In this document: one piece after another, positions 1-38,100 of the stretch
How the letters are laid out: every line of letters begins with the position of its first letter
Numbering within the stretch: position 1 is the first letter of the stretch
DNA from: Naegleria gruberi
Taxonomy: Eukaryota
Length of the DNA: 64,000 nucleotides
Assembly (NCBI GenBank): GCA_000004985.1
Contig: GG738899.1
Direction: 5' to 3' (one strand)
The notes under the pieces: generated by a model
Databases searched by the model: none
Seen by the model: only the letters and a program-made list of their open reading frames with translations
Told to the model about the DNA's origin: nothing
Program-made: the position numbers and the translations under genes

Positions 1-73
1 TAATCCAAAAAGTATCCAATGTGAAACAACACTATTCAGAATAGTTTTGATCAAAATTAATGTTTTATTTTAA

Positions 74-1315
74 TTAAATTGGAATAGATTGGATATTGGT
101 AACTCTTCTCTGACCATTGATTCCAACAAGATACAACATTCCATTCACACTTGCATAAATTTCAACTGAAGTTCCACTTTCTCTTGGAACTTGCTTTACA
201 ACTTGACCATTTTCAACATTTACAATTTGAATTCCGTCTTTCAATCCAATTGCAATTAAAGTTCTCTTATCATTGAGTGCTGCAAGGTTGGTTTGGAAGT
301 TTGGGCTAGCAAGTTGCATGGCTTTGGTGATGGAAGGAAACTTTTGGGTTGCATTCAACTTGTAAATGGAAAGTGGACTATTTTCTGCTTGTTCATAACA
401 GTATGATAGGAAGGTGAGTTGAATTTCTGATGTAGAATATCCTAAACCATGACAACTTTCGAATTCTCCAGCCAACCTACTTGGTTGAACAATGTAGTTG
501 TTTTTAATCGAGTAGAAGGACAACAAATTGTTATTGTAAATGATTGAAAACCATCCATTTCCTGCATAGGCCATTTTGCCATACTCAACTGAATCATTTG
601 ACCAATCATAGTAATTGAATATTTTGCCACTACTAACATCGAGTTCCATAAATGTATTTCTAGCCAAGAAGTAAACCACACCATTGTCTTGTCTAAATAC
701 CAAATTACTAGAAATTGTAATTGGAGTTTTCCATACAATGTTCAAAGAATTGGTATCAATTGAATAAATGAATTGCTTATCTACTGAAACAAGCAATCGA
801 TTAAATTGAGGAGTAAGAATGAGTGAATCGAATTTTGATAAAGGTGGAAGTGCAATTTCTTGTTGTTGTAAGGTAAAGCTTTTGAAGTTAAACTTGTTGA
901 TAGAAATAGTTCTGGACTTGGACAAAAAGTAAACATTTCCCAAAGAATCAACTACTTTGGAACTGACTAATAGACCAATTCCTGGTCCTGTCATTTGAAA
1001 TTTTGCATAATTTCCAGAATTCATGTTCAATACCAATAGTTCATCAACTGCACGAGGTGAATCATAATAATGACCAATCATGAATCCGTTAAAAGAATCA
1101 ATAACGACATCTTCTAAAATATGTGAAAAGTTGCCAGTAAGCCATGGATTGTGCTTTGTAGAATAGGCTGCCAAATTGGAGTGAAATTCGTCCAAACCCT
1201 TTTGAGTCCAAGCATTGGAGACAACACATTGGACGCAGGATGCAACCATCAAGCAACACAATAGCAATGCAATGTTGCGCATATTTTTTTTGTTTCCTCT
1301 CGTTCCAGTTATCAT
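74..1315 (-). CDS. Secreted hypothetical protein (signal peptide, no recognisable domain)
   Basis: 413-aa ORF ending in a TAA stop. The N-terminus MRNIALLLCCLMVASCVQC is a hydrophobic signal peptide. Composition is Asn/Ser-rich and possibly beta-rich, with no catalytic motifs recognised. Confidence 0.45.
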   Translation of the reverse strand: MITGTRGNKKNMRNIALLLCCLMVASCVQCVVSNAWTQKGLDEFHSNLAAYSTKHNPWLTGNFSHILEDVVIDSFNGFMIGHYYDSPRAVDELLVLNMNSGNYAKFQMTGPGIGLLVSSKVVDSLGNVYFLSKSRTISINKFNFKSFTLQQQEIALPPLSKFDSLILTPQFNRLLVSVDKQFIYSIDTNSLNIVWKTPITISSNLVFRQDNGVVYFLARNTFMELDVSSGKIFNYYDWSNDSVEYGKMAYAGNGWFSIIYNNNLLSFYSIKNNYIVQPSRLAGEFESCHGLGYSTSEIQLTFLSYCYEQAENSPLSIYKLNATQKFPSITKAMQLASPNFQTNLAALNDKRTLIAIGLKDGIQIVNVENGQVVKQVPRESGTSVEIYASVNGMLYLVGINGQRRVTNIQSIPI

Positions 1316-1512
1316 CTTCGCTGAGATAAAAGAAACTCCGACAGATGTAGAAGCATGAACTGCAAAGATCAGCCGGGGTTACTAACTCCTTTGAGGGGGA
1401 ACATTTCTCTTTGTACGTCTCTACATGTTCGTATGTACAATTATTACTGGAAGATTAAATGAAATTCGGATGTATTGTTGCTATAAAGAAGTTGTTTTCA
1501 TTATGAACAACA

Positions 1513-1584
1513 TCCCGTGTAGTCCAATGGCTAGGATACCTGGCTTTCACCCAGGAGGTCCGGGTTCAATTCCCGGCATGGGAG
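1513..1584 (+). tRNA. tRNA-Glu (anticodon UUC)
   Basis: 72-nt cloverleaf: acceptor tcccgtg/catggga, anticodon stem cctgg/ccagg, loop cTTTCac, T-arm ccggg-ttcaatt-cccgg. It closely matches eukaryotic tRNA-Glu-TTC. A T-rich tract follows, consistent with Pol III termination. Confidence 0.85.
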
Positions 1585-1682
1585 GATAATTTTAACCTGT
1601 CTTGATAAATTCTACAGTCTTTTGCTTGTGGTTCCGAATATTTTTTCTATGTGGCTTAATTTAAAATTAATATTTAAAAAAA

Positions 1683-3173
1683 ATGATCACACAACCAAAA
1701 CATTCCATCACTTCATTTTCGAAAATACAAGAAAATAGTCCATTCTCTGACGATTCACTCTTTGAAATTTTATCTTTTCACGATGATTTTAAATTTATTG
1801 TACAGAGTTGTGCATTGGTTTCCAAACAGTGGTTTCATGTCATTAAAAATTCATGTAAACACCTCTCGATAACACGTAATAGTGATTGGGAAATGGTTGG
1901 TCAATTGCCGTTTTTGGAAAATATTGCAAATCTAAGAGTGATAAATAATGAAGTTGGATTTAATTGTGAGATATTGGATTCGATGAAAGAATTGAAAAAA
2001 CTCAATTTAGAAAATAATTCTAATATTCATCCAAGTGGATTCAAGTATATATGTTCATTGGAACAATTGACTGATCTTTATATGACTTTCTGTTATTTTA
2101 GATTGCCTATTGCTAAACATTTACCATCGTTGAAATCACTAACTTATCTTCTTATTACGGGTAATTATATTGGTGTAGAAGGAGCCAAGTATATTGGTGA
2201 AATGAAGCAATTGAAACAACTTCATATTGCTAATAATAATATTGGCCCGGAAGGAGCCAAGCATATTAGTGGCCTTGAACAATTGACTATTCTTAATATC
2301 CGTGCCAATGAAATTACTGTGGATGGAGCAAAATTTATTAGTGAAATGAAACAGTTGACTGTCCTTAACATTATTGGCAACGATATTTGTGACGAAGGAG
2401 CTAAATTTATTAGTGGAATGAAACAATTAACTAATCTTGATATTTCTGTTAATAATATAGGCGAGAACGGTGCCAAGTATGTTAGTGAAATGTTGAATAT
2501 AACCAAACTCAATATTGGTTTTAATTCTATTAATGATTGTGTTGAGTGTTTTGGCAAAATGAAACAATTAACAGATCTTAATGTGAACAGTAGCTGTATT
2601 GGATTGTGTGGAATAGTTTTCATTTCGTCATTTAATCAATTAACTCATCTTTCTATAGCTAGTAATAGTATTTCAAATTACGAGGCAAGTCACATTAGCC
2701 AAATGAAAAATGTAATTAAGCTTGACATTTCTGATAATCGTATTGGGGATAACGGAGTCCAATCTATAAGTGAAATGAACCAATTAACTGAACTTAATGT
2801 TTCTAGTATTGATATTACACCAATAGGTATACAATATATCTGTAAAATGGATAATTTAACGTATCTAATAATTGCTCATAATAACATTGGAGTGAAAGGT
2901 GCAAACCAAATCAGTGAAATGAAGCACCTAGCACAGCTTTCTATCTATAACAACGCTGTTGGAGATGAGGGAGCCAAATTTATAAGTGAAATGGAACAAT
3001 TAACTTTTCTAAATATAGGTTCCAATGAAATTGGTGACGAAGGCGTTAAAGCCCTAAGTGGAATGAAGCAATTAACAGAACTTAACACAGTTGATAACAA
3101 TATAAGTGAAGAGGGTGAAAATTACATTCGAGAAATGAATTTGACAGATCATACAGGTATTTATGATGTTTAA
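1683..3173 (+). CDS. F-box/LRR-repeat protein (RNI-type 24-residue leucine-rich repeats)
   Basis: The N-terminus has an F-box-like motif (LFEILSFHDDFKFIVQSCALVSKQWFHVI). About 14 tandem repeats of the form ...QLT.L.I..N.IG.EGAK.IS.MK... follow, which is the ribonuclease-inhibitor-like LRR pattern. It ends in a TAA stop. Confidence 0.6.
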   Translation: MITQPKHSITSFSKIQENSPFSDDSLFEILSFHDDFKFIVQSCALVSKQWFHVIKNSCKHLSITRNSDWEMVGQLPFLENIANLRVINNEVGFNCEILDSMKELKKLNLENNSNIHPSGFKYICSLEQLTDLYMTFCYFRLPIAKHLPSLKSLTYLLITGNYIGVEGAKYIGEMKQLKQLHIANNNIGPEGAKHISGLEQLTILNIRANEITVDGAKFISEMKQLTVLNIIGNDICDEGAKFISGMKQLTNLDISVNNIGENGAKYVSEMLNITKLNIGFNSINDCVECFGKMKQLTDLNVNSSCIGLCGIVFISSFNQLTHLSIASNSISNYEASHISQMKNVIKLDISDNRIGDNGVQSISEMNQLTELNVSSIDITPIGIQYICKMDNLTYLIIAHNNIGVKGANQISEMKHLAQLSIYNNAVGDEGAKFISEMEQLTFLNIGSNEIGDEGVKALSGMKQLTELNTVDNNISEEGENYIREMNLTDHTGIYDV

Positions 3174-3195
3174 GGGAAATGAACTTGATCAAGAT

Positions 3196-3493
3196 TAAAA
3201 TTCTATGAGTCCCTCATCAAGGAAGGATTTCAATTTGGCAATTTGCTCCTGTTGTTCTGATGATAATTCAGTTTCAGTAGTGGTACTTGATGGAGAAGAT
3301 TGACTTGATGATGAAGTGCCAATAATTTAGATTGTTTCATTTCGAATTGTTCTTGTGAAATGATTCCATTCTCCAAAAGTTTCTTGGCATTTGAGGTGTT
3401 TCTTGGAGAGGTTTCAACCTTTTTTGGTTGTCTCATTTTGAGGTTTTCCATAGAGTTTGTCAAAATTACACACCTTGATTTTTGACCCACCAT
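3196..3493 (-). CDS. Small ORF with SHOCT-like motif (frame appears disrupted)
   Basis: The 87-aa ORF contains KKLLENGIISQEQFEMKQSKLL, which resembles the LL..G.IT.EEFE.KK..LL consensus of SHOCT-like short helical motifs. An adjacent frame continues ...EQQEQIAKLKSFLDEGLIEF* to about 3196. It starts only 13 nt downstream of the SPRY-gene stop. Whether it is coding is uncertain. Confidence 0.2.
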
Positions 3494-3506
3494 TGTACCT
3501 TGTTAT

Positions 3507-4380
3507 TTATTGCTGGATTAGCTCAAAGTTACAATTTGCATCATAAACTCCAAATGCAGGAAACAATTCAGGTTGGTTTGGAATATTTGAAAAGGCAACT
3601 CCATAATTAACACCATTGATTGTATAGGATATTTTACCATCTTTAAATTCACATTCAACAATTGATCCATCTTGAATTTGACTGGAATTATTAGAATAAC
3701 TTTTGTTTGATTCTCCATTCTGAGAATAAATGGTTCCACTAGCAGCATACAAATAATATCCACATTTAGAAAAATTATTTGTTTCGTTTACATTAATACT
3801 TTTAGGTGCAAATCCAATTAATAGTTTAGAACAATTAGATATGAGTTTAACTTTGAAATGATTTGATTTTGTTCCTAAAACACTTGAACTCCAATCAGAA
3901 GTGTTTTTTCTCTTTAGTATAGTTGGTGTTTCCAAGACAAGATTTGCAGAACAATACTGTGGATCAAATACTACTGTTTTTGAGTTTCCTTAATTTGAGC
4001 TACTTGTATCATTCTCTAAAATAATTCCATACTTGGATTTGAGTAAACTTCTTCCTTTAGGTGGAAGAATTTCATAAATTGGTGTAATTTGATAATAGAC
4101 AACTTCTTCCAAAAAACCCAGAAGGTCATTCCCATTCAAATTTTCAACTTGGTCCTTGATGTCAATTCCTCAAATAATTTAAAATCAGTTGAAACTGCTC
4201 AAAAGGTCTATCAACAAAATAGGCATTGTCATCTTCCTCAACAGTTGGACTAAAATGATCATTGAAATATCCAGTAAAGAATGTATCCTTCACACTCTTC
4301 AATGTTTGTAAGCTAGTGGAGAATATCTTCCCACCGACGTTTAATTTTACCACTTGATTCTTTCCCAATTTACTTACCAC
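3507..4380 (-). pseudogene. KCTD-type BTB/POZ (T1) plus SPRY/B30.2-like domain gene, with frame disruptions
   Basis: Positions 4380-4162 encode a T1-type BTB domain (VKLNVGGKIFSTSLQTL...YFVDRPFEQFQLILNYLRN). Its continuation (DIKDQVENLNGNDLLGFLEEVVYYQITPIYEILPP) lies in the +1 frame with no GT..AG intron that could fix it. An in-frame TAA then precedes a C-terminal SPRY-like region (3935-3507, ...FPAFGVYDANCNFEL). This is either a pseudogene or a sequencing/assembly error. Confidence 0.45.
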
Positions 4381-4665
4381 AGAGGCAGTGAATTATTTCG
4401 ATTTTGTTACAAGGAATCTTATCCAAATCCAAATACAAAACAAATTATTTTCACAAGACACTTCCAACCCTCAAACTTTATGAATTGATTATCAATAATA
4501 TTGCTTTCCTCTTTGAGAAAATGGAGTTTGTCATATTTTGGAAATTGAGATGCAATATCTGTATCTCCACTGCGGAAATCCTGAAATTAATGAACTTGTA
4601 ATTTCGAATAAATTCTGCCCAACGTTCTTCACATTCTTCTTTCAAAAAAACAAACAACCCAAGAA

Positions 4666-5214
4666 ATGAAAGCTATCATTCTCTCCATTGTCCTCCTTGC
4701 TTTCCTTGCCATCACATCAGTCAATGGTCAATTTCTCAGATCTTCCGTTTACACTGACTCCAAATGTTCAAGCACTCTCCCAATGTTGGATCTCTACATT
4801 CCAAGTACTAACTGTACTTCCAACCCAAACTGTACTGGCAATAACATCAACACACTCTTTACCACTAGTCAATGTACTTCAACTGTTCCTTCCATTGGTT
4901 CCAAGAATACTTTACAATTATCCATTTATTCCGACACTACTTGTGCTAGTGGCAACTTGGTTGTCTCACAAATCTTCCCATTGGATACTTGTGTCGTTGT
5001 TCCAAGTGTTGGTTCTTATAAGAGTACTGCCTGTAGATATTTGACTGTTTATTCTGATAGTGTCTGTACTAATGTTAAACAAACTGTCGATTTTTCTGCA
5101 TATAATGGAGTTTGTCTTTCTGGAACTAAATATGTTTGTTCTGGAGCTGAAAAGATGATTGGATCAAGCATTTTGATGGCATTGATGATGATTTTTTCAT
5201 TCTTTACTTTTTAA
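4666..5214 (+). CDS. Cys-rich GPI-anchored surface protein, ponticulin-like
   Basis: It has a signal peptide (MKAIILSIVLLAFLAITSVNG). There are three Y..(D/S)..C......(Y/F)....C repeats. A C-terminal hydrophobic tail (GSSILMALMMIFSFFTF) follows a small-residue omega region (CSGAEK), typical of a GPI signal. Confidence 0.45.
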   Translation: MKAIILSIVLLAFLAITSVNGQFLRSSVYTDSKCSSTLPMLDLYIPSTNCTSNPNCTGNNINTLFTTSQCTSTVPSIGSKNTLQLSIYSDTTCASGNLVVSQIFPLDTCVVVPSVGSYKSTACRYLTVYSDSVCTNVKQTVDFSAYNGVCLSGTKYVCSGAEKMIGSSILMALMMIFSFFTF

Positions 5215-5449
5215 AATAAATAGTATTTTCAATAACATAAAATATTAGTTGTTATTACTTGGGAAATGTTGCATTCATCGTGATATGGCAGTAGCCGTCA
5301 CTTATTGAAAATTTGAAATTTTAAAATCAAATTCAAACCATCATCTTCAAAGAAGCTGACTTGCTTGATGGTGACATATTTGGAGTTGAAGTCAACCCAA
5401 TCCAGTTGAGTTTTCAAAACTCATTGAAATTGCCTATTTATTTTTACAG

Positions 5450-5822
5450 AGCTCTTCACTTTTGGATAACAATACCAGTATCCTCATATTCTTCTTTCAG
5501 TTATCCACATCTGCCAACAAGTTGTAATTTTAAGACCAATATGTGATTATTGTCGGATGGTTGGATGGCAATTCATATGACTTTTCAACTGAGGATGATC
5601 TAGCAGCAACCTTCATTTCAGCTTCAAAATCCAAAACAAAATAACAGAGCTTTTCCTTGATATCTCTGATAATTTCTCTTTCAGCAGTTGAATAAGTAAC
5701 CTCTTTCCATCAAAATTTTCATCAAGTAATCAGTCAAGTCACAACCAGCCAAATCCAATCTCAAAATGGCGTATGGCAAGGTATAACAGTGTGTGAAACA
5801 CCGTCACCAGAGTCCAAAACAA
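5450..5822 (-). pseudogene. Actin pseudogene fragment (5'-truncated, internally deleted, frameshifted)
   Basis: The reverse strand translates as [16 protein letters not shown]...[21 protein letters not shown]...[41 protein letters not shown], matching actin residues about 150-245. It then jumps to QMWITE..EYEDTGIVIQK*, matching the actin C-terminus ([21 protein letters not shown]). There are several frameshifts and no start codon. It begins 11 nt after the helicase stop codon. Confidence 0.7.
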
Positions 5823-5833
5823 TACCAGCACTC

Positions 5834-7954
5834 TTATTGTTTTGTTTCATGTGGTTTCAACCTTTCTATAAATGTTGAAGAGTTACTACTACTGTTATTA
5901 GTTAAATAGAGCCATTCTTTAGCCCTTGTAATTGCAACATAGAATATTCTATCCTCTTCTCCTTCATGGACAATTTGTTGCTTTTTCAGTTGTATTGGAT
6001 CTGATTTCTTGATAAGTGGCATGACACCATCTTGCACTTCTGGTACAAAAACATGTTTCCATTCTCTCCCTTTTGCTCTGTGGACAGTGCATATGTGAAT
6101 TCCCTTTCCATCTGATGAGTTATTATATGTTTCATCATTAAATGAAATAAGAGAATCAATCAGATCAGAAGTAACTAATTCATCATTTAAGCCCAATCCA
6201 TCAATTATTAGAGGATCGTCCCAATTGAATTTCTTTTGAATTGTTTCAGCAAGTTTTAAAAAAGTTGTGTTTGCTAAACCTGCTGCCAATTCGTTAATGA
6301 CTGTAAAGAAACGGATGAATTTCTCTAATTTGTCTTTCTTAGGTGCTTTTCCTTTTGTAGGTACTTTCGTACTAGGAGTTTCCTGATCCTTTAAATATTG
6401 TAAATATTTTTCAAATGATTTCTCTCCAATCCCTTTAAAATAGATGAAATGCTTAATAATCCATTTCATTGATTTTGTAAATTTTTCATCCTTGATTTCC
6501 ACACCATCACATATCAACTTCATCAGATTCAACATTACTCGGGTATCATCCTTGGCATTCTTTGAGATTGGAATCTTTTTGTTCTTGAGTATACTTTCCA
6601 ATTCGCTGGTATTAGTACTTCTTCTCATTAGTATGGCAATATCATTATAAGATACTCCCTTATTATTCAATATTTGAATTTGATTTGCAATATATTGAAA
6701 TTCTCCATCACGAGTACTAAAATTGTTTAAAGTGATAGCATCTTGGGAATCGGTTTCTATTGAATTTTCTGTTGATGTTTTCATAAATCGATTAGATGCT
6801 AACACAATTGACTTCATGCTTCTATAGTTTCTTCTGAGCTTTAATATTGTTGCAGATGGGAAATCTTCCATAATTTTGTCAAATATCTTTTCTTGAGCGC
6901 CTAAGAATGAATAGATTGCTTGATGTGGATCTCCAAATACTGAAAATCTCGTTTTCTCTCCAATAATCATTTTCATAAATTTATACTGAACTGTGGATGT
7001 ATCTTGAAACTCATCAATTAAAACATCTGAGTAATGTTGTTGATAAAAATCTCTTGAACCTTGATGATTACTCGTTAATATATAGCAAGCTTCTCTCATA
7101 AGTGAAGATAAAGTAAGCATGCTCTTGGCTATTTCTTCATATATAGTCAAGGCAGCTTTGTAATCTGAAGTTGCAAACTCATTAGCAGAGACTTCTCTTG
7201 CGTATTCATCTTGTGCCCAATCAACATATTTCTCAACAGTCTCTGTAAGTGTAACATTTTTCTTTTCTAATTGCTCTTTCATCTCCTTAATAATCGATTC
7301 TTTTGTTGAAATATATGTTTTTCCTTTAGCTCCGTATTTTCTGCAAATTGACAAGGCAAACGCATGGATAGTTTTTACATCATATCTCTTTTCCACTCCA
7401 TATTTTTGTAATCTTTCTTGAATTTCCCTAGTTGCATCTCTAGAAAATGTTACAAGCAAAAGACAAGCATTAGGATTAGTTTCAATAATCTTCTTGGCCC
7501 TAAATGTCAACACAAGTGTTTTACCACCACCTGGTGGTGCCTGTACAACAAGATATTTGGCAGAATCATTTTCAATAACACCAAGTTGATCGGCATCGAA
7601 CTTTGGCACCTCTACAACAGGTACAATTGCGTTACAGTCAATTGTTGCCTTCTTTTTCTTCTTTTGAAAAAATGGATGCAAAGGAAGGGATGAAGTAGGT
7701 GTTTCTATTATTGATGAAGGTGACACTTCTATTTGGCTCTGAGTATCATCGGGATTCTGTTCTTGCTCCTGGCTCGGAGAGGATGAAGTGGAATTTTCTT
7801 TACTTTTAAGTGGTTTGAAAAATTCAACCACGGTTTTTTGTTTTTTACTATCTGGAATTGTACTATTGGAAAGTGATTTGGATTTTCTCTTTAGAGAATT
7901 ATTTCCTGATGATTTTGATGAAGAAGGCAAGCTTTTTCTTCCCGAAGTCATCAC
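5834..7954 (-). CDS. UvrD/Rep-family (SF1) DNA helicase with Ser/Lys-rich N-terminal extension
   Basis: Motif I is LVVQAPPGGGKT and motif Ia is VTFSRDATREIQERL. Motif II is LIDEFQDTS, motif III is VFGDPHQAIYSF, and motif IV is NYRS. Motifs V and VI are HICTVHRAKGREW and YVAITRAKEWLYL. The N-terminal 90 aa is basic and Ser-rich (NLS-like). Confidence 0.85.
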   Translation of the reverse strand: MMTSGRKSLPSSSKSSGNNSLKRKSKSLSNSTIPDSKKQKTVVEFFKPLKSKENSTSSSPSQEQEQNPDDTQSQIEVSPSSIIETPTSSLPLHPFFQKKKKKATIDCNAIVPVVEVPKFDADQLGVIENDSAKYLVVQAPPGGGKTLVLTFRAKKIIETNPNACLLLVTFSRDATREIQERLQKYGVEKRYDVKTIHAFALSICRKYGAKGKTYISTKESIIKEMKEQLEKKNVTLTETVEKYVDWAQDEYAREVSANEFATSDYKAALTIYEEIAKSMLTLSSLMREACYILTSNHQGSRDFYQQHYSDVLIDEFQDTSTVQYKFMKMIIGEKTRFSVFGDPHQAIYSFLGAQEKIFDKIMEDFPSATILKLRRNYRSMKSIVLASNRFMKTSTENSIETDSQDAITLNNFSTRDGEFQYIANQIQILNNKGVSYNDIAILMRRSTNTSELESILKNKKIPISKNAKDDTRVMLNLMKLICDGVEIKDEKFTKSMKWIIKHFIYFKGIGEKSFEKYLQYLKDQETPSTKVPTKGKAPKKDKLEKFIRFFTVINELAAGLANTTFLKLAETIQKKFNWDDPLIIDGLGLNDELVTSDLIDSLISFNDETYNNSSDGKGIHICTVHRAKGREWKHVFVPEVQDGVMPLIKKSDPIQLKKQQIVHEGEEDRIFYVAITRAKEWLYLTNNSSSNSSTFIERLKPHETKQ

Positions 7955-8151
7955 GAATTTTTTTTGATTTATTTTTAATTACCTTAAACGTGATGATTGA
8001 CCATATGCAAAGGTTATTGAAATCAAGTTAATTGGATAAGCACATATTGCTCATATTAAAAGTAAATGATCATTATTTTGTAAACACCAAAAGTTGTAAA
8101 GTCAAATAGAACCCTTTTAGATCATGATGAACATTCTATCATTGATGTGGG

Positions 8152-9381
8152 TTGATTAGATCACCCGATGACAACTTTTTAAATAATCAAAAAAAAATGA
8201 TGAACACAACTGGACCTCCCTCACTCAATCTTACCATTCACTCTGGATATTCCTTACCAAAGGCTGATTTACTTTCTTCAATTGATGCCTATTGTGTTGT
8301 ATATGTTCCATTGTTGGGTGGAAAGTTGGATATTATTAAAACCAAGGTTATTGATGATAATGCCAATCCTACATGGAATGCTGCCTTGTTTCGTACAGAT
8401 GTTGATGCCAGTCGTGATATGTTGATTGAAGTTTGGGATAAAGATGCTCTCAAAGATGAAATTGTATGTCGTGTTAATGTACCTTTGCCAAGATTGTGGA
8501 ATGAAAGATATTGGAATAATCAAAAATTTGTTTTAGAATGTTTGGGAAAGCACAAACCATACAAGGGAGCATCAGAGTGTGGTCTAGTAATTTCTGCCTT
8601 CTCTCAGATTTCTTTTGCTGATCTGGTTCAAAGAGTGAATGCTCCAAATAAGTTTGTTGATCCAGTTAAGAAGATATTGGTCTATCCAATCATTGGAGTT
8701 TTGGAAGATAAGCTTTATTTGAAGGTTTCTATCACTAAACGATTCAAAGTTTCCATTCTCGATACATCCTTGAGCAGAAATTTGGCCCTATTCGAAATTG
8801 TTGGAAGAGATGTTGGCACCAAAATCATTACAGCCAAGAGTCCAAAGACCAAGTTTGGAATTACCTACAGAAGAAAACTCAAATTGAAAAAGTGTGATCC
8901 ACATGCTCTTGCCAATCTCAAACTCCTTGTTGCTGGATTAACTAAAGTTGAATCAAAGGGTGTTGATGTAATTGTTGGAGAGCATGGATGGGCTGGATCA
9001 ATGTCCTACGATCAAGCTAAAAAGACTCTACGTAATATTACAGTGGATGAACAGAAAAAGAGAATTTTCATGAATGAAGCCAACTATGCTTACATGGTTG
9101 ACTATGATAGCTCAAATTTTGATCAAAAGATTTGGTTAAAGGAAGAAGCATCTGCCAAAGGTTATCATGCTGAATTCATTTACCATAAGGGAAAGAGTTG
9201 TGTTGTCACTTCACATCAAGAACCACAGTTACAACAACATACTGGAGCTCTCTATAGATTTAGCTCACAGGTAAAGGACTCTGAATATGGAACACCATTC
9301 AAAGAATTCTCAGTTGATTTGTACCAAAGAATCAATCCTATGCAAGTAATGCTCAGTGGAACTTATCTACCATTATTGTAA
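8152..9381 (+). CDS. C2 domain-containing protein
   Basis: N-terminal C2 beta-sandwich signature: LNLTIHSGYSLPKADLLSSIDAYCVVYV...NPTWNAALFRTDVDASRDMLIEVWDKDALKDEIVCRVNVPL. The real start is probably the internal Met at about 8197 (MMNTTGPPS). The C-terminal 280 aa has no recognised domain. Confidence 0.6.
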   Translation: MIRSPDDNFLNNQKKMMNTTGPPSLNLTIHSGYSLPKADLLSSIDAYCVVYVPLLGGKLDIIKTKVIDDNANPTWNAALFRTDVDASRDMLIEVWDKDALKDEIVCRVNVPLPRLWNERYWNNQKFVLECLGKHKPYKGASECGLVISAFSQISFADLVQRVNAPNKFVDPVKKILVYPIIGVLEDKLYLKVSITKRFKVSILDTSLSRNLALFEIVGRDVGTKIITAKSPKTKFGITYRRKLKLKKCDPHALANLKLLVAGLTKVESKGVDVIVGEHGWAGSMSYDQAKKTLRNITVDEQKKRIFMNEANYAYMVDYDSSNFDQKIWLKEEASAKGYHAEFIYHKGKSCVVTSHQEPQLQQHTGALYRFSSQVKDSEYGTPFKEFSVDLYQRINPMQVMLSGTYLPLL

Positions 9382-9538
9382 TTTATTAAATTTTGTAATG
9401 GTTCGTAATAGATTCTACCAAGAGTCAAGTTGGATTCTAATTATAATGAGATTTTCGAATTTCCCAAAAGTTGTGGGAGCGTTGAAATGGTATCCATAGT
9501 TTTTTTGAATACCATACGGCGTTAAGATCTAAAAAAAA

Positions 9539-10369
9539 ATGAACAAGAAGTTATTTGGCTTGATAATAGTGGCCGCTTTGACACTATTCCTACTCACCAC
9601 CTTTGCAGTATGGATGGGTTTGTTGCTAGGTGAGAAATTATATGAACCTATAGAAACCAGCTATACAGAATATCTTAATACCACATGTTTGGTAAATCAG
9701 ATGAATTTGACCTCCACTAGTTGCTGCTCCAAATCATGTTCGCAATGTAGAGAATGTGATCGGTCTTTGTATCCATCATGCTATAATACCACCTTTTTGG
9801 ATGTTGTATTTCTTAATCAGTCATCTTCTCCTTGTTGTGATTCTTCTAAATGTTGTAAGAATTGTTGTGAAACATGTAAGAACTGTTGGTGGACAGGAAA
9901 ATATCAACAATGTTCTAGTTATGAATGCAATTGTAGATGTTGTTCATCTGTCAGCTCTAACTTATGTACCTATGAATGTAATCCATGCTGGAAAATTCAC
10001 ATAACATTCAGCTATTCAACAACTCAAAATGAAACTTTCTCACAGTACGAATATTTTACATGCTCTTCACAAACTTGTGTTGATGAAAAAACAAGCAATT
10101 ATGCTGTGAATAACACGGTGGTATGCTACTACAGTCCAATTAATCAATATCCATCACTATACAGGTCCTACAGTGAGACCACAACCACCAAGGATACTTA
10201 CAAGTTTGGAATTATGTATACCTTTGTAGCCTTATTTATTATTTCTTTAGTTGGTTTGATAATCACTATAATTGTGTTGCTTGTTAATTGTTTGAGAAAT
10301 GTGAGATATTCCAATCCAGTATTTAATGCTGGTCAAAATGAACTACGTTCGAATGAATCTACCCAGTAA
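9539..10369 (+). CDS. Cysteine-rich membrane protein (N-terminal signal/anchor, C-terminal TM)
   Basis: It starts with a hydrophobic N-terminus (LFGLIIVAALTLFLLTTFAVWMGLLL). A Cys-dense ectodomain follows (CCSKSCSQCRECD..., CCDSSKCCKNCCETCKNCWW, CNCRCCSS). Near the C-terminus there is a TM helix (IMYTFVALFIISLVGLIITIIVLLV) and a short tail. Confidence 0.45.
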   Translation: MNKKLFGLIIVAALTLFLLTTFAVWMGLLLGEKLYEPIETSYTEYLNTTCLVNQMNLTSTSCCSKSCSQCRECDRSLYPSCYNTTFLDVVFLNQSSSPCCDSSKCCKNCCETCKNCWWTGKYQQCSSYECNCRCCSSVSSNLCTYECNPCWKIHITFSYSTTQNETFSQYEYFTCSSQTCVDEKTSNYAVNNTVVCYYSPINQYPSLYRSYSETTTTKDTYKFGIMYTFVALFIISLVGLIITIIVLLVNCLRNVRYSNPVFNAGQNELRSNESTQ

Positions 10370-10435
10370 ACTTATTTAATATCGTCGATTGCTTAAACGA
10401 GTTTCATATATAGACACTAAGGACATTAATGAGCA

Positions 10436-10508
10436 GCCCCGCTAGCTCAGTCGGTAGAGCGTTGGACTTTAAATCCAACGGTCGTGGGTTCGAGCCCCAC
10501 GTGGGGCG
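10436..10508 (+). tRNA. tRNA-Lys-like gene with anticodon UUA (ochre-suppressor-like)
   Basis: 73-nt canonical cloverleaf with acceptor gccccgc/gtggggc. The D-arm (gctc-agtcggta-gagc) is identical to eukaryotic tRNA-Lys(UUU). The anticodon stem ttgga/tccaa is perfectly paired, and the loop is c-t-T-T-A-a-a, so positions 34-36 are TTA. The T-arm is gtggg-ttcgagc-cccac. A/B boxes are intact, and a T-run (ttgttatttttttc) starts 3 nt downstream. Confidence 0.7.
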
Positions 10509-10831
10509 GTTGTTATTTTTTTCATGAAGTTATCAAGGAATGCCGTTAAAAACACAACTTCCATATTTTATATTTTTTCTTTTGCTTCAATTAAGTAAAT
10601 CTTAAAGAACCCATTTTGATAATTTCATAGCAAGATTATCTCCTTCCAGCACTCAACCCCAATACATAACACAACACGTTAATATCAGCTTCCTTTACAA
10701 TACAAGTTCTCTCTTCAGTCAAGTAGAGTGTCTCCTCCACTGGAAAGTCTTTTTTAAACTTGTCAAATTATTGTCATCACTCATCAGGTTGTTCCCTTCC
10801 ACAAGTAAAAAAACATAAAAAATATTTAAAA

Positions 10832-11652
10832 ATGACCACAGGTAGGTTCGTTGCGAAATCTCAACATTCCGCTTACAAGAAATTTAATCAATATCACCTT
10901 TGATCATACTATACAATGAATCATGATTATTAATCTAATACTAATAATAACAATATTGTTGATATTTACGTTCTCTTTGGAACTTTACTACTATTGTATT
11001 GAATTTTCACCACCCTGTGTTTTACTGTGATGATATGAACAATAATAATAACAATAACAGGAAACGAAAGTATTGATCAAATCCTCAACAAGGATACTGA
11101 AGATGAATCTCTCAGAAAATACAAGGAACAATTGTTGGGAGCTGCTGCTAAAGGAATTCCAAAGACTGATGATCCTCGTCGTGTTGTTGTTGAAACTTTT
11201 GGATTGAGATTCCCTGATGGTGAACACCCAGACATTATTAGAGAAGTTGACACCAAGGAAAAGGTTGCTACTTTGGAAAACGAACCTATCAATATCAAGG
11301 AAGGTGTCAAGTATTTATTCATTGTTACTTATAGAGTACAACACGACATTGTCCCTGCTTTGCACTTTGTTAACACAATCAAGAAGACTATGGTCACTGT
11401 CGATCAACAAGTAAGTAATTCAAATTTTGAAACAAATTAGAAATTGAATTAATAATTATATAGAATACTATGATGGGAAGTTATGGTCCTCGTGCTGAAC
11501 CATACACCTACAAGTCACAACCACAATATGCTCCAAGTGGTATGTTGGCTCGTGGTTCTTTCAAGGCCAACACCAAGTTTGTTGATGATGATGGAAAATG
11601 TCACTTGGAAATGAACTACAGTTTGGTCATTAAGAAGGACTGGACTGATTAA
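10832..11652 (+). CDS. Rho GDP-dissociation inhibitor (RhoGDI), 3 exons
   Basis: Exon 1 is 10832-10841 (ATG ACC ACA G, then gtaggt). Exon 2 is 11061-11410 (...DESLRKYKEQLLGAAAKG...LRFPDGEHPDIIREV...EGVKYLFIVTYRVQHDIV...). Exon 3 is 11464-11652 (MMGSYGPRAEPYTYKS...GMLARGSFKANTKFVDDDGK.HLEMNYSLVIKKDWTD*). Exons 2 and 3 match metazoan RhoGDI nearly motif for motif. Exon 1 is inferred from the ATG and GT..AG context. Confidence 0.8.
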
Positions 11653-26214: not shown

Positions 26215-26641
26215 TCATCATTTAATTGTATACTAACATTTCATCATTATGTGATTAACTCCACATTTGACATCAAAAATAATTATATCCGATGGTAGAC
26301 TTGGTAATTTACAAAAACTTGTAGAATGCCATACTTGACTATTGTGACCACTTATCTTTTGATGATTTAGTATAAATTAAATTGTTGTTGTGGTATATAT
26401 TTCTACCTACATAGAAAGCAAGCTCTTCCCCTTCATTACTTGTTGACATTTTTTTCAGTTCCAAAATTGAATTTTTATTATTATCTTGTTGTAAAGTTAA
26501 GAATACAAATAATGAAGGATGCATTGACTATGGTAATGTAAAAGTATCATCCAAAATGCTAATGAAACATAAAAAAGGAGGAACTCCATATGAATAGAAT
26601 GTATTGTTGCTATAAAGAAGTTATTTTCATCATGAATAACA

Positions 26642-26713
26642 TCCCGTGTAGTCCAATGGCTAGGATACCTGGCTTTCACCCAGGAGGTCCGGGTTCAATT
26701 ACCGGCATGGGAG
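26642..26713 (+). tRNA. tRNA-Glu (UUC), second copy, with T-stem mismatch (possible pseudo-tRNA)
   Basis: It is identical to 1513-1584 except for c to a at T-stem position 61 (...ttcaattAccgg...). That change breaks the conserved G53-C61 pair. About 45 nt of upstream flank and 12 nt of downstream flank are also shared with copy 1. Confidence 0.7.
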
Positions 26714-26830
26714 GATAATTTTAAACTTTTGGAAATCAATCCTCAAGGAATCCGCTTGTTGATGACTTTATTAAGGGTGATGATTCATCAAAGCAGAATC
26801 TTATAAACTAAGAATTTACTCCATTAATGT

Positions 26831-29176: not shown

Positions 29177-32100
29177 ATGCCAGAAGTAATTACCAGCAGC
29201 ACTGTTGGTAGAACAGCTTTCGGTCCCAACCTTTCCTTGTTGAAGGTAAGTTATTACTCATTTACATCTCGCAGTAATTTTTTTTTGACTTTCTAATAAC
29301 AAACAAACTAAGAACTTCAAAATGAACATGTTGAAAATAATATATAGGGTGGTACAATCTCTCAAACAATTGTTGGTTTAATAGTTTCTGCTTCTGTTGT
29401 TGCCTCTCTCGTTGTTACCATTGTAATGATTAGTGTTGGTGCAGGTGTTCAAAATCCAACATTGAAACCAGACTATTATGAACTTTACAAAAAGACACCA
29501 TCAAAACTCTATCCTCTTCTCAATGATATTGATCCAAGAGGTGGTAATTTGACAATTTTAAATGTTACTCAACCATTACATGGTAAAGCTGTGTTATCTT
29601 CTGCTGGCATGGTTATTTATACAAGTATTGGTTCTTATGCTGGTAATGATACTTTCGAATATTCGGTTACTAATGGATGGACAACTGCGACTGAACATGT
29701 TTATCTTAGTATTTTGAATCGTGCTCCAGAAGTAGTTGACATGACATATACTGTTAATAAGAATTCAAAGAAAAATTCATTTGATTTATTTGGATATGAA
29801 AGTGAAATGGGTGCTAAAATTAAGGATATTGACGGTGATGATTTATCTATTACTGACATTATTCTAGTTTCTCCTAATGTTGGTAGTTTAATCTCATTCG
29901 ATCAAAATTACTTGTACTATACTCCTGCTTATGGTTTTAATAATATTGAATTACTTAACTATACAATCTCAGATGGTTATGCCAATGTTTCAGGTGTCAT
30001 TACTATTAATGTTGCCAATGATAAACCAACAGCTGAACCTGACACTTATACCATTACAAAGAATGCTTTGGGTACTTTTAATATTCTAGATAATGATTTT
30101 GATATTAATGGTGATAACATTTCAATTACCACTGCTGGTTTAGGTTCATCTGGTGTTGTTTTAATTTCCTCTGATAATTCAAATATCGAATATATTCCAA
30201 AGCCATTTGTAGCTCCATATACTGATGCTTTTGAATATGAAATCACTGATGGAGCTTTGACAAGTTCTAGTTATGTTTTTGTAAAGATTGTCAATTCTCC
30301 TCCAACTGTTTCTGATAAGGTTTTCAATGTTGCAAAGAATTCAAAGAATAATCTTTTAGATTTGACATTCTCTGATCCAGATGTACTTGATACTGTTACC
30401 TTGACAGCTGTTAGTAAGCTTGCTCGTGGTAATTCCTCATTGTCTGTTACTAGCTCAATGGCATCTGTTTATTATCCAACAGGTGACTTTTTACAAGTTA
30501 AGAAGAATTTGTACTCTCTTGTTTATACACCAGATCAAGGTGTTATTTATACTGATTCCTTTAAGGTCAAAGTTAGTGATGGTGTGGATGTTGCTTATGC
30601 CACCATTACTATTAATGTAGTTCCTTCTCCTCCTGTTCCTGTTAATGATACTGTCACTTGTCAAAAGAATGGACAAGTCTCTCTTGATGTTATCAGTAAT
30701 GATTATAGTGCTTCTGGTGATGTTTTGAAATTGAATTTTGCATCATCTACTTCCAATTTTGGTGGTAAACTTGTTAAGATTGATGATAATAATGTAAAAT
30801 ATGAGCCAGCTAAAGGATTCCTTGGTCAAGATGAAGCTCAATACATTGTTATTAACACTAACACTGATGGATCTAGTGAAGGTACTTTCAATAGAGAGGG
30901 ATATGTTCTTGTTAATGTTGTGAACTCACCTCCAGTTGCTGTTCCATTAACTTTGACAGTTTCAAAGGGTTTGACAAGTGCTCTTAATTTATTAAGAGAT
31001 AGTTATGATCCAAATGGTGATTCTATTAATTATAATAGTATTGCTAAGAGTACTTATGGAGTTTCATTGTCCTTCACTTCTGGTAATGCAAATGTTAATT
31101 ATGCTGCCTTGTCATCTGTCTACGTTGATTATGTTGACTTTACTGTTGTTGATATTGATGGAGCTATTTCACAAGTTGCTACAGCTACCATTAACGTTGT
31201 TAATGATGCTCCTGTTCCAGTTGATGATACTGCTGCTGTTTCTTGGAATAGAAGTATTGTCATTGATGTTTTGGCAAATGACAAGGATGTTAATGGTGAT
31301 TCTCTAAGTGTTAAGAGTGTTAGTTATACTTCTAATAATGGTGCAACTGTTACTGTTCATCAAGGTGGTAAAACTGTTCTCTACACTCCAAAGGATGGAT
31401 TTGTAGGAAATGATACCTTCTCCTATGTTTGTTTTGATGGAATTGATTCATCTGTCACTTCTGGATTGGTGACAGTTGTTGTTAGTAATACTGCTCCATC
31501 TACTTCTCCAGTTACTGTTAGTGTTCATTGGAGAGATTCTTCAGTTATTATTCCAGTATTGACCTATGCCAGTGATATTGATGGTGATTCTCTTCATGTT
31601 GAATCTTTCACACAAGGATCAAAGGGATCTGTTTCACGTGTTACACTTACTGATGGTACAGATGGTTTGCAATTTACTACTTCTGGGTCAAATAACTATG
31701 TTGGAAGTGATTCTTTTACTTTTGTTGTTAGTGATTATGGTAAATCAAGTGTTGGAAGTGTCAACATTCAAATTACTGACACTGCTCCTGTTGCCAATGC
31801 TGATTCATTCTCAATGCATTGGAGATCAACTGATAATGTTTTATCTGTTCTTGCTAATGATGTCGATGCTAATATTGATCCAATTACTGTCAAATCATTT
31901 ACTAAACCACAAGGTTTTACTGGAACACTTGTCAATGTTAATTCTCATTTGACATTTACACCAAGTGCTTCAAGTGTTGGTACTCAAACATTTACTTACA
32001 CTGCTACTGATGGTCCATCAACAAGTAATGATGCTACTGTCACATTAACTGTTACCAATAAGGATATTCCACAAGATAAGACAATTTCCAAGACTGTTCA

Positions 32101-35100
32101 CTGGTCAACTCAATCAACTGGTACTACTATTACCATTTTCTCAAGTGCCAATCCAGTTGATACTGATGGTGATTCATTGAGTATTTCTTCTACTCTTGTT
32201 TCTCCTTCAAGTGGTTCAATTACAATTTCCAATTCTGATATTCCAAGTGTTGTTTACAAACAAAATACTGGATTCCTTGGAACTGATACTTTCAAGATTC
32301 AAATCTCTGATGGTGCTGCTACTGCTATTGTTACCATTTCTGTTACTGTTTATGATAATGCTCCATTGTCTAATGATATTTCTGAAAATAGACATTTTAC
32401 TGAAGTTAGTAATGGATATACTAAGAATGCAATTTCATTCTTCAATGTTACTGATATCGATTCTCAAGATAGTGTCACTGTTAAGGATGCTACTGTTGGA
32501 TCTTGTGGTTCTGTCTCAAAGACTTCTTCAACTGTCACATTCACAAGTAATAAGGGAAGTGTTGGTGTTTGTACTGTAACTATCACATTTACTGATGGTC
32601 TATTGAATTCTGTATCCAAGTGGAATGTCAATGTTCAAAATCAAGATCCTTCTGCCGCACCAATTAGCACTACCGTTCACTGGAGTAAGAGTCAAGCTAT
32701 TATTGACATTATGTCAACTTTGTCTGATGCTGATAATGATGCCTTGTCTTATTCAGTTTCATCTTATGATTCCACATTCGGTAGCCCATCTATCAATTCT
32801 GATAAGGCTCTCGTATGGACTCTTCCACAAACACCAAAATTAGGAACAACTCAAATTGTAATTTCATTCACAGATGGATGGGTCAGTAAGACTGCTTCTT
32901 ATCCATTGATTGTTCAAAACGTTGCACCAACTGCAGTTGCAAAGACAATTTCATCAAAGTGGTCTGCATGTCTTTCTGGTATTACTATTGATATTTTGAG
33001 TGAATGCTCAGATAATGACGGAGATAGTTTGTCATTTGACAGTACTACGCCAATTGTTACTGCTCCAGCTCAAGGAAGTGCTTCAATTGTTTCTTCAAAG
33101 GTTTATTACAAACAATCAACTGCTTCTGTTGGTTCTTATTCCATTACTTACAAGATTACTGATGGTATTCAAACTTCATCAAACTCTATTACTGTCAATT
33201 GTGAAGATAATGCTCCTGTTGCTAATGCTGATTCAATTACTGTTAATTGGAATACCTCTGATGTCGATATTACTATTTTGTCTAACGATATTGATTCAGA
33301 TAATGATATTCTTTCTGTCACTAATCTTTCAGCTGTCAGTGAAGGTTCTTTAACTAATTTAGGTACTTTTGTTAAATATACTTTGAAGAAACCACCAACC
33401 CTTTCTGACAAGACATTCACCTATAAGGCATTCGACGGAGCTCTCTATTCCTCTGCTGCAACTGTCACTGTCAAAGTTGTCAATGCCAACAAGCCACAAA
33501 TTAGTGATCAAAGTACAACTGCTCACTGGAGAACTGTCAAGGATGGTGTTTCATACACTGTCTATGATACTCTTACCGATGCTGATGGTGATTATTATTC
33601 ACTTTCATTTGGTAGTGGTTCAAGTGCTTATTGTTCACTTATTGACCTTTCGAATGGTATTAAGGGTGTTAAATATACTAGAAATGCATTCGATTCCACT
33701 GATTCTTGTAAAGTAGTTCTCTCTGATGGATTCAGTACAAGTGCTGCCACATTAACAACCAACTCTTACAATAATGTTCCAGTTGCTGCCAACTTTACTT
33801 TAGATTATTCTGGTGGTAATATTCAATATGGTATTTCAATTGATGTTTTGTCATCTGCTACAGATGCTGATATTCAAGATGTTCCATTCCTTTCCATTTT
33901 AAGTGTTGGAAATTCCAAATTATATGGTAGTGAAGCTGCAAATATTGTAAATGGACAAGTTTTCTATTTCCCAGATCAATCATTAGTTAAAGCATTGGGT
34001 ACTGATACTGTTGCTTATACTATTAGTGATGGTTTATCAACATCTATTGGTTATCTCACTATTAACATCAAGTCAACTTCTCCATCCAGTACTGAACAAT
34101 ATTACAATGTTCATTTTAGATATTCAAGTGTTGGTTATGTTTTCACACCATTGACAAAGATTGCAGATGCCACTAAACTTGATACTACTGTTGTTCAAGG
34201 AAGTGAACCAAATCAAGGTGGTTCAGTTGTTGTTTCTAGTGTTGATGAAAAGACAGTTACTTACAAACCATCTGGTTCCTATTTAGGTAATGAAATTTTC
34301 AAGTTAAAGTATTATACTGCTAGTGGTAGTAGTGATATTACTTTTACAATGAATATTTATGATACTGCTCCAATTGCTCAATCACTTTCTGGTTCAGTTC
34401 ATTTTGGTAAATCAACAACATTCAATTTAACTGCTTCAACTTCAGATGCTGATCCATTGGATGTCAATAATTTGTCATTCTCAATTACTGGTCAACCATC
34501 TCAAGGATCTTTGAGTGTTTCATCAAATATTGCCACTTATACTGCATCATCAACTGTTGGAACCTATTCTGGTATTTACAGAGTTTCAGATTCTATGAAA
34601 TCTTCTACTGGTTCTATTACTTTGACTGTAACTAATACTGTTCCTACTTCACAAACTAAAACCATTTCAGTTCCTTGGAGAACTTTCAAGGCAGGTTTTA
34701 ATATTGATGTCTTGAATTTAGCACCAGCTGATTTTGATAATGATGGAGATGAGTTGAGTTTGGTTTCAATTGCTCTTCAACCATCAGTTGGTTCAGTAAC
34801 TAAATTGGATAGTAAGAGAGTTAGTATTGTTGGTTCAGGAAACTTTGTTGGTTCACTTACATTCAAATACATTGTTAGTGATGGTGCCTCAAATGGTCAA
34901 GTCACAACCACAGTTAACTTGAATGTTTACAACACTGCTCCAGTTGGTATTCCAGATAAGCTCTCTACCCACTGGAATGTTGCCTCAAAGACATTGAATG
35001 TTATTGCCAATGACACTGATGCTGAATCAGATCCTTTAACTGTCACATCCGTTTATGGATCTTTAGCTTCAACTGCTCCAACTTTCACTTCTGATAGTAT

Positions 35101-38100
35101 TGTCTATTATCCAAAGAATGCTCCATCAACAGATACAGTTTATTATACAGTTTCTGATAATGTTGCTACATCTATTTCATATGTCACTGTTACTGTAACT
35201 AACACTGCTCCAACTACAACTTCTCAATCATTTGTTGGTTCTTGGTCTTCAGCTAAGAATGGTTTAACATTTGACGTTGTTTCTACTTCTTCTGATGCTA
35301 ATGGAGATTCATTGTCATTGCAATCATGCTCTTCATCAGTTACTTCCTCTCAAGGTAATGTCACTTGTTCTGGAAATGTCAAATTCACTCCAGCCAGTGG
35401 TTTCGTTGGTAGTATCAACCCAATCAGTTATATTATCACTGATGGTAGAGACACTGTCACTGGTACTGTTTCCATTACAATTTTGAATAATGCTCCTACT
35501 GCTAATACTACAAATACTTTCAGATATCATTGGAGAAGTGTTTTGAGTAATACTGTTATTGATCTTTCTTCATATCTCAAAGATGCTGATGGTGATGCTG
35601 TTACTTTGACAGCTGTCACAAAGACACTTGTTGGTGTTGCTTCTCTTGGATCAGGAAATACCATTAACTATAAGGTTAATAGTGCTTACACTGGTACTGA
35701 TTCAGTCACTGTCTCATTCACTGATGGATGGTCAACTTCAAGTGCCACTTTCAATATTGTAATTTACAATAACGCTCCTGTTGCTCAAAATATCATTACT
35801 TCAACTCACTTGGCAACTTTGAACATTCCTGTGATTGGATCTGGTTCAAATCAACCAACAGATGCTGATGGAAGTGTTGATCTTAATAATTTAGTCATTT
35901 CTTCATTCTCAAATCCATCAGTTGGAAGTGTTTCTTTGAGTGGTGATAAGAAATCATTCACATTCACTAACGTTGCTGGAAATGTTGCCACTCAAACATT
36001 TACCTATGTCGTTTCAGATGGAAAGGATACTTCTGCATCAAAGACTGTTACAATTTCCATTACAAACAATGCACCATCTGCAACTCCAATTACCATTTCT
36101 AAACATTGGGCTACAGTACAAGGTGGATTAGATATTAATTTATTGTCTGTTGTAACTGATTCTGATGGTGATTCTCTTTCAATTACTTCATTCACTCAAA
36201 CAAATAATGGAGCTGTTTCTTCAATCAATTCAACATCTGTCAAGTATATTCCAACACCATTGACTGCTGGTTTCACAACTTCATTCACCTATTCAGTTTA
36301 TGATGGTTATACTACAATTTCAAATACTGTTACAATTTCAATTACCAATACACCACCTGTTGCAGTTGATGATACCATCACTGTTCACTGGACCAATAAT
36401 ACATTGTATTTGAAACCAGTTGTGAATGATTATGATTTGGATAATGATTACATTTATATTAACAAATTGTATCCATCTCAATTTATGAATGCCTATGCAT
36501 CAATGGGTAATTATATCATCATTTCAAAGGGAACAACTATTGTTAATAACTTTGCAAGTGTTGTCGTTCCTGGAAGCGTTGCAACTGCTGGATTTGTTAA
36601 TCAAGTTCTTCAACCAACTGGCTCACTAAATGTTAATAATGCTGCTCAACTTGCCATTGTTAATGCTGCTACTAATTTGTATCAATCATTGAGTTTATAT
36701 ACTTGTACTGCTTCATTAGATCAATCATTCCCATCTTCAAATGTTTTGAGTTTCTCACCTGGTGTCTATTGTTTCCCACAAGGTTTATCTGGTTCTGGTA
36801 CCATCTTGTTGAGTGGTTCAGGTCTTTACATTTTCAGTATTTCCACTAATTTGAATGCTAACTTCCAATGGTCATTCACAAATGGAGCTAGTGCTTCAAA
36901 TGTTTATTGGTTGGTTGGTGCTGCTGGTATTTCAGGAACTTTCTATGGTCATGTTTTGAGTAATGGTCAACTCAATTTCAATAATGTTGTTCAAAATGGT
37001 GTTATTATGAGTTTAGGATCAAATTCAATGAGTTTGAATAGTGTTACTTTTGGTTCCGTTGTTATTCCAACTGGACAAACTGCCTTGGAATTACAATCTG
37101 ACAAGTTGACTGTCTATTATAAGAATACTTTCATTAATGGACCAGCAACTGACTCATTCCAATACACAATTACTGATCAAATTGCCACTTCTAATGTTGC
37201 TATTGTCAAATTGGTCTTTACCAATACTGCTCCAGTTGCCACTTCATTCTCAGCTGGTAAAGTTACATGGAAAAATACCTTAACAACTGCAAGTGTTGTT
37301 TCCAAGTATTGTTCTGATGCTGATAAGGATTCATTGAGTTTATTCGGAGTTACTCAAGGTAAATACGGAACTACTACAGTTACCGATTCTACAAGTGGTA
37401 CCATTGTTTATACACCAAGTAGTTCAATTTCCTATACCTCTGTTGATTCCAATGGAGCTAGTTATGTAACTGATCAAATTACTTTTGGATGTTATGATGG
37501 AGCTCAAGTTACATATAACACATTCTCTGTTGTCGTTTACAATACAGCTCCAAAGAGTGCTTCTAAATCACTTAGTGTTCAAAGAGATACTTCAAATCCA
37601 ACTGTTACATTGAATGATTTGTTGGTTGGTGCTACAGATGCTGAGGGTGATTCAATTTCTGTATCAAGTGTTTCAATGATTTCACAAAATACTGGTGCTT
37701 CTGTCTTGTTATCATCCAATACTGCTAAACTCACTTACATAACTTCATATTTAGGTTCAATTGTCTTTTCATTCACTTTAACTGATGGTCAATTGAGTTC
37801 AACTTATAATTATAATGTCACTATTACTGGTGCTCCATTCTATTGTGTTGATTATACCATTAGTACTACCAAAGATTCCTCTGCTGTCACTTTCGAAACT
37901 GATTTAAAGTCTAAATTGTCAAGCTATTGTGTTAATGATGTTTGTACTTTGGCTCTTGCTTCAACTGCATCACTCAATGGAGTTGGTTCAATTGCTGCCA
38001 ATGGTAATAACTTGTTGACATATACTCAAAATTCCAAGTCATCATCAAATGGAGAATCCTATTCCACTTACTCATATTCTAATAGGGCAGGTCAAAGCGC

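Follow-up and report, generated by a model that had tools for sequence, protein, structure and literature searches.

An intact lysine-type tRNA gene with the anticodon UUA in the TAA-terminating genome of Naegleria gruberi

The tRNA gene and its signals

We analysed a stretch of 64,000 nucleotides from Naegleria gruberi NEG-M (contig GG738899.1 of assembly GCA_000004985.1), referred to here as the window. Runs of N occupy positions 54586-54636, a scaffold gap of 51 bases, and positions 56202-64000, which reach the end of the window. The real sequence therefore amounts to about 56 kb, with everything after position 56201 being N padding. The G+C content of the genome is about 33%, its genes are dense and introns are few. 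Three tRNA genes were found by ARAGORN, and the one at 10436-10508 has the highest Rfam score of the three. The features of its locus, with the grounds for each, are as follows.

10407..10412, + strand: TATATA at -29 to -24, possibly a Pol III promoter element upstream of the gene (sequence)
10436..10508, + strand: tRNA gene of 73 nt (ARAGORN, Rfam, cloverleaf fold, identity to Lys genes)
10443-10454, + strand: Pol III A box, TAGCTCAGTCGG (sequence; the same in 29 of 29 Lys(CUU) genes from metagenomes)
10467-10473, + strand: anticodon loop CTTTAAA of 7 nt, with the stem TTGGA/TCCAA on both sides
10469..10471, + strand: anticodon TTA, positions 34-36, read from T10469-T10470-A10471 (sequence and ARAGORN)
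10487-10497, + strand: Pol III B box, GGTTCGAGCCC (sequence; the same in 29 of 29 Lys(CUU) genes from metagenomes)
10516-10522, + strand: run of seven T, Pol III terminator, 8 nt past the discriminator G
10833-11652, + strand: RhoGDI gene, interrupted by two or more short introns, 3' of the tRNA gene

ARAGORN labels 10436-10508 (+) as "tRNA-Stop, anticodon (tta) at position 34". The Rfam model RF00005, for which the gathering score is 29, matches the gene over its full length at 70.8 bits (E = 1.8e-13) and without a single non-canonical pair. Its cloverleaf fold has a minimum free energy of -34.1 kcal/mol (z = -3.8), a value equalled by none of 200 shuffled sequences. The body is of the lysine type, has G as its discriminator and contains no intron; its 3' end is followed by GTTG in the DNA, so that CCA is not encoded. 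At 63% G+C, this body stands out from a neighbourhood of 30% G+C.

The anticodon 5'-UUA-3' is the complement of the codon UAA. It is presented in a loop that reads C32-U33-U34-U35-A36-A37-A38, with the U33 and the purine at position 37 that are looked for in an ochre-suppressor anticodon. A10471 is the base that separates this tRNA from one with the lysine anticodon UUU, and it is also the base that produces the run A36-A37-A38. A shifted anticodon or an unusual loop was considered and rejected, as ARAGORN and Rfam both give a loop of seven nucleotides. A repeat or transposon setting was likewise rejected, the flanks of the gene being unique within the window.

With a cloverleaf scoring above threshold, A and B boxes, an oligo-T run and no encoded CCA, the gene has the hallmarks of a nuclear Pol III gene of type 2, and all elements for transcription by Pol III and for folding of the tRNA are intact. 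An earlier note on this DNA had described just such a gene, namely an intact tRNA with UUA at positions 34-36, set in a ttgga/tccaa stem, with A and B boxes and an oligo-T terminator, and the programs and coordinates given above agree with it on each of these points. Among the explanations it offered was a tRNA pseudogene, a label for which the structure gives no support. There is no broken stem, no truncation, no low score and no loss of promoter or terminator, and only the anticodon is altered. Since both tRNA-Glu genes of the window carry TATAAA at about -31 to -26, the TATATA at -29 suggests a role in transcription, as an upstream promoter element that the UUA gene may share with the Glu genes.

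A lysine-type body

The relatives of this tRNA were sought in two ways. JGI metagenomes were scanned with a core of 58 nt from the UUA tRNA in which the anticodon was left free, and the core was matched by 29 contigs of 25-46% G+C. In every one of the 29, the anticodon is CTT, the acceptor stem is GCCCGGC/GTTGGGC and ARAGORN assigns the gene to lysine. On this comparison, the D arm, anticodon stem and T arm of the UUA tRNA are of the widespread eukaryotic Lys(CUU) type. The canonical Lys(CUU) tRNA is identical to it at 69 of 73 positions, and the differences are confined to positions 34 and 36 and to the pair 5:68. This pair is G-U in the common Lys(CUU) tRNA and C-G in the UUA tRNA, which is a compensated change. 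Pattern scans of bacterial and archaeal genomes and of viral contigs gave no match.

Secondly, the open frames of the tRNA were translated, joined and used as a query of the protein database, a search aimed at spurious ORFs lying over related tRNA genes. It returned only canonical Lys(CUU)-type sequences and one array of Lys(UUU) genes. The array fills positions 1-11003 of ctg10153 (ENA ERZ25074608), a contig of 46% G+C, and consists of 57 tRNA genes in tandem, one about every 193 bp. By ARAGORN, 52 of these are Lys(UUU), 2 have the anticodon UUC ("Glu") and 3 have UAU ("Ile"). Copies with UUC or UAU keep a lysine body around an altered anticodon, and in some copies there are substitutions in the stems as well. 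The Lys(UUU) gene of this array is identical to the UUA tRNA at 67 of 73 positions. The two share the whole acceptor stem, C5-G68 included, the D arm and the anticodon stem, and they differ only at position 36 and at five positions of the T stem. In at least one other eukaryote, then, an acceptor stem with C5-G68 joined to this anticodon stem makes up an ordinary Lys(UUU) body.

These comparisons place the gene in the lysine family by its body, whereas its anticodon is neither of the lysine anticodons, UUU or CUU. The earlier note had called it a eukaryotic tRNA of the lysine type, and here the 29 of 29 Lys genes matched by the core leave it standing. Its more specific assignment to Lys(UUU) held in part: the acceptor stem does match Lys(UUU) of the tandem array, but it is the pan-eukaryotic Lys(CUU) type that the T arm and anticodon stem follow, as is evident from the same 29 contigs. 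Because the acceptor stem with C5-G68 and the anticodon stem are shared with the array, the simplest origin would be a copy of Lys(UUU) type in which T36 was replaced by A. This origin in one step is proposed from the genes of other organisms, and the four positions that differ from the pan-eukaryotic Lys(CUU) tRNA count against it.

TAA as the main stop codon

What a tRNA with the anticodon UUA could do depends on the use of TAA in the genome that carries it. Among window ORFs of at least 150 aa, 23 of 28 (82%) end in TAA. The products of five window ORFs are exact matches to annotated Naegleria gruberi proteins, and the long ORFs are uninterrupted, including one of 3674 aa at 29426-40450 (+). 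This last ORF, the "giant adhesin" of the earlier note, ends in TAA and has an in-frame TGA three codons further on. The RhoGDI gene also ends in TAA, at 11650-11652, about 1.1 kb downstream of the tRNA, and this stop falls at the conserved C-terminus, where full-length human RhoGDI1 has its last residue. That genes of the window mostly end in TAA, as the earlier note had it, was therefore confirmed both by the ORFs and by a gene with a well-placed end.

The RhoGDI gene also has a bearing on how ORFs are to be read. Its first exon is ATGACCACAG, followed by GTAGGT, and a further intron lies at 11412-11463. In the ORF list the gene is split into pieces, and so not all gene ends in the window that are based on ORFs are real.

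No in-frame TAA was seen in the genes of the window, and two apparent in-frame stops that were checked, each between consecutive ORFs sharing a frame, fall in introns. These two pairs of ORFs were rejected as candidates for read-through, since their members are separated by an intron containing several stops or by a gap that resembles GT-AG. Back-up TGA stops within 10 codons past TAA are found in frame in 3 of 22 genes, a small sample; the numbers for the two remaining frames are 4 and 5. Were a ribosome to read past TAA in the window, the extension would have a median length of 9 codons. The decoder of a reassigned stop should find its target stop in frame inside conserved coding sequence, and the window offers no such case. 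Several decoder genes and an altered eRF1 would also go with reassignment; the gene for eRF1 lies outside the window. TAA is the main stop here and not a sense codon, and a variant genetic code is rejected for want of in-frame TAA within the genes of the window.

The setting among tRNA gene families

The genome of N. gruberi has 924 tDNAs, of which 41 are flagged as pseudogenes (PMC2888827). This corresponds to about one gene per 44 kb and fits the three found in a window of 56 kb. The other two in the window are both tRNA-Glu(UUC) genes, and they are copies of one unit of 129 bp, found at 1470-1598 and 26599-26727 (+) with 96% identity. The unit takes in 43 bp upstream, including the TATAAA, the tRNA and 14 bp downstream. 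Hence tRNA genes here seem, on the evidence of these two copies, to spread together with a short flank that bears the promoter. In the second copy, at 26642-26713, a pair of the T stem is lost through a C-to-A change, and its score is 56.6 bits compared to 67.0 for the first. Both tRNA-Glu genes are followed by only four T as terminator, as against the seven of the UUA tRNA.

Programs for tRNA detection predict a small share of genes with stop-reading anticodons in eukaryotes of the standard code. For plants, the count of such "suppressor" genes is 25 with UUA and 11 with CUA, which jointly make up 0.036% of the predicted tRNA genes (PMC7678280). A plant total of about 98,800 tRNA genes can be derived from the percentages in the same paper, which puts the share of UUA genes at about 0.025%. 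Applied to 924 genes, the plant rate predicts some 0.23 with UUA. With such a share in plants and so many genes here, one UUA copy is not unexpected. Point variants of the anticodon (UUC and UAU) are also present in 5 of the 57 copies of the tandem lysine array described above.

Conservation of the locus and the literature

The tRNA gene lies between a gene for a Cys-rich membrane protein and the RhoGDI gene. A homology search with the ORF flanking the tRNA (9539-10369) recovered only the N. gruberi protein itself. In Naegleria lovaniensis, the region around the orthologue of a helicase gene of the window is not syntenic and contains no tRNA gene. An environmental contig of 2699 bp (ENA ERZ929261) is 98.99% identical to the window over 2469 bp, and this alignment indicates the presence in the environment of a strain very near to N. 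gruberi NEG-M. The contig spans only 5260-8020 (-) of the window, and the tRNA lies outside its coverage. It takes in the gene for the helicase and non-coding DNA that follows. Over the 250 bp upstream of this gene, identity falls to 92% and there are indels.

Two further observations concern this neighbouring region. The helicase at 5834-7954 (-) is of the UvrD/PcrA type. Apart from the environmental copy, the only close eukaryotic relative found is that of N. lovaniensis at 33% identity, and most other named matches are bacterial at about 24-30%, so that a bacterial origin is a possibility. Just downstream, at about 5260-5830 (-), lies a degraded stretch resembling actin, in which stops and frameshifts occur and which is present in the environmental contig too. 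It looks like a fragment of an actin pseudogene.

A search of the literature found no report of a suppressor tRNA or of read-through in Naegleria. It also found nothing on the UUA tRNA sequence itself, nor on the study PRJEB11402, which is named in the ENA record of the environmental contig.

Comparison with known systems

The UUA tRNA gene belongs among the naturally occurring, predicted suppressor tRNA genes of standard-code genomes. Like the predicted tRNA-Sup-TTA genes, it is a single gene with an ordinary body, an anticodon complementary to a stop codon and a genome with standard stops. It differs from them in being a high-scoring copy (70.8 bits) without structural defect, and in N. gruberi about four genes in five terminate at its target codon.

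A second comparison is with lysine tRNAs that were turned into suppressors. In E. coli, the lysT alleles supG and supL are lysine-inserting ochre suppressors that arose through a change of U36 to A in tRNA-Lys(UUU). These and the edited human Lys tRNAs (PMC6379413) resemble the N. gruberi gene in having a lysine body, a change at position 36 and an anticodon that pairs with a stop codon. The same outcome would be expected here, namely weak suppression that inserts lysine in competition with the release factor. The difference is that these tRNAs were selected in the laboratory or built, with their activity measured, whereas the N. gruberi gene is natural and is known from sequence alone.

Finally, there are organisms in which the code itself has changed. 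The oligohymenophorean ciliate PL0344 reads UAA as lysine and has 12 UUA genes, 8 of which are Lys-like. In this ciliate, UAA is frequent inside coding sequences, UGA is the sole stop and UGA back-up stops are enriched (PMC10553269). PL0344 and N. gruberi thus have in common a nuclear-encoded tRNA of the lysine type with the anticodon UUA. In contrast to PL0344, the N. gruberi window has one such gene, no in-frame TAA, TAA as its main stop and no enrichment of back-up stops. Blastocrithidia, a member of Discoba, has a tRNA-Glu(UUA) and uses UAA for both glutamate and stop (PMC12153298). It belongs to the same supergroup as Naegleria, and it too has a cognate UUA tRNA beside a UAA terminator. 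However, its genes are full of in-frame stops and its tRNA is of the glutamate type, neither of which is found in the N. gruberi window.

Origin and probable activity

Three points have to be considered in asking what a change at position 36 would bring about. Class II lysyl-tRNA synthetases recognise the anticodon, with position 36 included. U36 is also the context for t6A37, a context that is removed by the change to A. The run A36-A37-A38, on the other hand, is the motif of tRNA isopentenyltransferase in tRNAs that read codons starting with U.

We consider it probable that the gene is a young, one-off copy within the lysine tRNA family with a mutated anticodon, and not part of an altered genetic code. 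There is presumably no selection for keeping it. If the gene is transcribed, Pol III would read it from the internal boxes and stop at the run of seven T. The transcript would be processed and CCA then added. Lysyl-tRNA synthetase would charge the product with lysine, less well than a normal lysine tRNA since position 36 is in the recognition set of the enzyme. Once charged, the tRNA would compete for UAA, and perhaps by wobble for UAG, with the release factor eRF1. The outcome would be read-through at a low level and short C-terminal tails, of a median of 9 codons in the window. If transcribed and charged, we infer, the tRNA would thus act as a weak, lysine-inserting ochre suppressor, tolerated as a small fraction of the tRNA pool, that is, as one gene among about 900.

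Measurements on engineered tRNAs bear on this tolerance. In human cells, tRNAs with edited anticodons, Lys included, strongly rescue premature stops, while the density of ribosomes in 3'UTRs at natural stops rises by about 2-fold at most (PMC6379413). With a single gene among about 900 and so limited an effect at natural stops, tolerance is plausible. An expressed ochre suppressor had been expected by the earlier note to be deleterious in this genome, an expectation that is weakened, though not removed, by the dose of one gene in 924, by tails with a median of 9 codons and by the effect of no more than about 2-fold.

A copy that is functionally dead is unlikely, but it has several facts behind it. 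Such a gene would be silent, or it would not be aminoacylated because the synthetase needs U36; it would have no effect on translation and would decay. The place of position 36 within the anticodon recognised by the synthetase speaks for it, as do the tDNAs of N. gruberi already flagged as pseudogenes (41 of 924) and the neighbouring tRNA-Glu copy, which is in early decay. Moreover, an active suppressor of the dominant stop would be selected against. However, the sequence has no sign of silencing: neither promoter box is lost, and the TATA-like element and the terminator are in place too. The lysT ochre suppressors of E. coli carry the same U36A change. Anticodon-edited Lys tRNAs are suppressors in human cells too (PMC6379413).

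It is quite unlikely that the gene is instead a maintained natural ochre suppressor, which would be expressed, charged and under selection, either for programmed read-through of UAA or as an "ambiguous intermediate" on the way to UAA as lysine. All stem pairs, both boxes, the TATA-like element at -29 and the strong terminator of seven T are as one would wish for such a gene, and the pair 5:68 departs from the common Lys(CUU) tRNA in a compensated manner. The mutation has also given the tRNA the isopentenyltransferase motif A36-A37-A38. Precedents are provided by PL0344 (PMC10553269) and Blastocrithidia (PMC12153298). Yet an ordinary Lys(UUU) gene of the tandem array has C5-G68 as well, so that the pair is no sign of selection on this copy. 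The flawless body of 63% G+C fits a very young variant and purifying selection on a functional suppressor equally well. What counts against maintenance is the use of TAA, which ends 82% of the long ORFs and is absent in frame from the genes of the window, together with TGA back-up stops that are not enriched (n = 22). One such gene is seen in the window, and the literature search brought up no report of read-through or of a suppressor in Naegleria. For N. gruberi to keep, express and charge the tRNA and to read UAA as lysine proteome-wide at a low rate, as a living "ambiguous intermediate", is in our estimate very unlikely.

It is highly improbable that A10471 is an artefact of sequencing or assembly, or the minor allele of a heterozygous site, with TTT as the true or other allele and an ordinary Lys(UUU) gene as the result: one base makes all the difference, it lies where a run of T meets a run of A (TTTAAA as against TTTTAA) and the scaffold does have gaps (the N run at 54586-54636), but a substitution that preserves length is not a typical homopolymer error, the environmental contig, which does not reach the tRNA, agrees over 2.47 kb at 98.99% and argues that the assembly is not grossly faulty, and a consensus error of one base is far rarer than the 0.2 or so real UUA variants per genome inferred from the plant rate (PMC7678280).

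Implications

Taking the gene once more as a young anticodon mutant of the lysine family, its meaning depends on its activity. Should the tRNA be made and charged, a short tail starting with lysine would be added now and then to about four of five N. gruberi proteins. An active gene would be a natural system for the tolerance of a suppressor of the main stop and for the onset of reassignments of UAA to lysine. Were the "ambiguous intermediate" true, it would represent an early stage of stop-codon reassignment in a free-living eukaryote with the standard code, and it would require conservation among strains. If the gene is recent and effectively neutral, which is more likely, it would mean that large tRNA families constantly yield stop-reading copies, and nothing more. 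In either case, the label due in annotation is tRNA-Sup(UUA), and the gene should not be taken as evidence of a variant genetic code.
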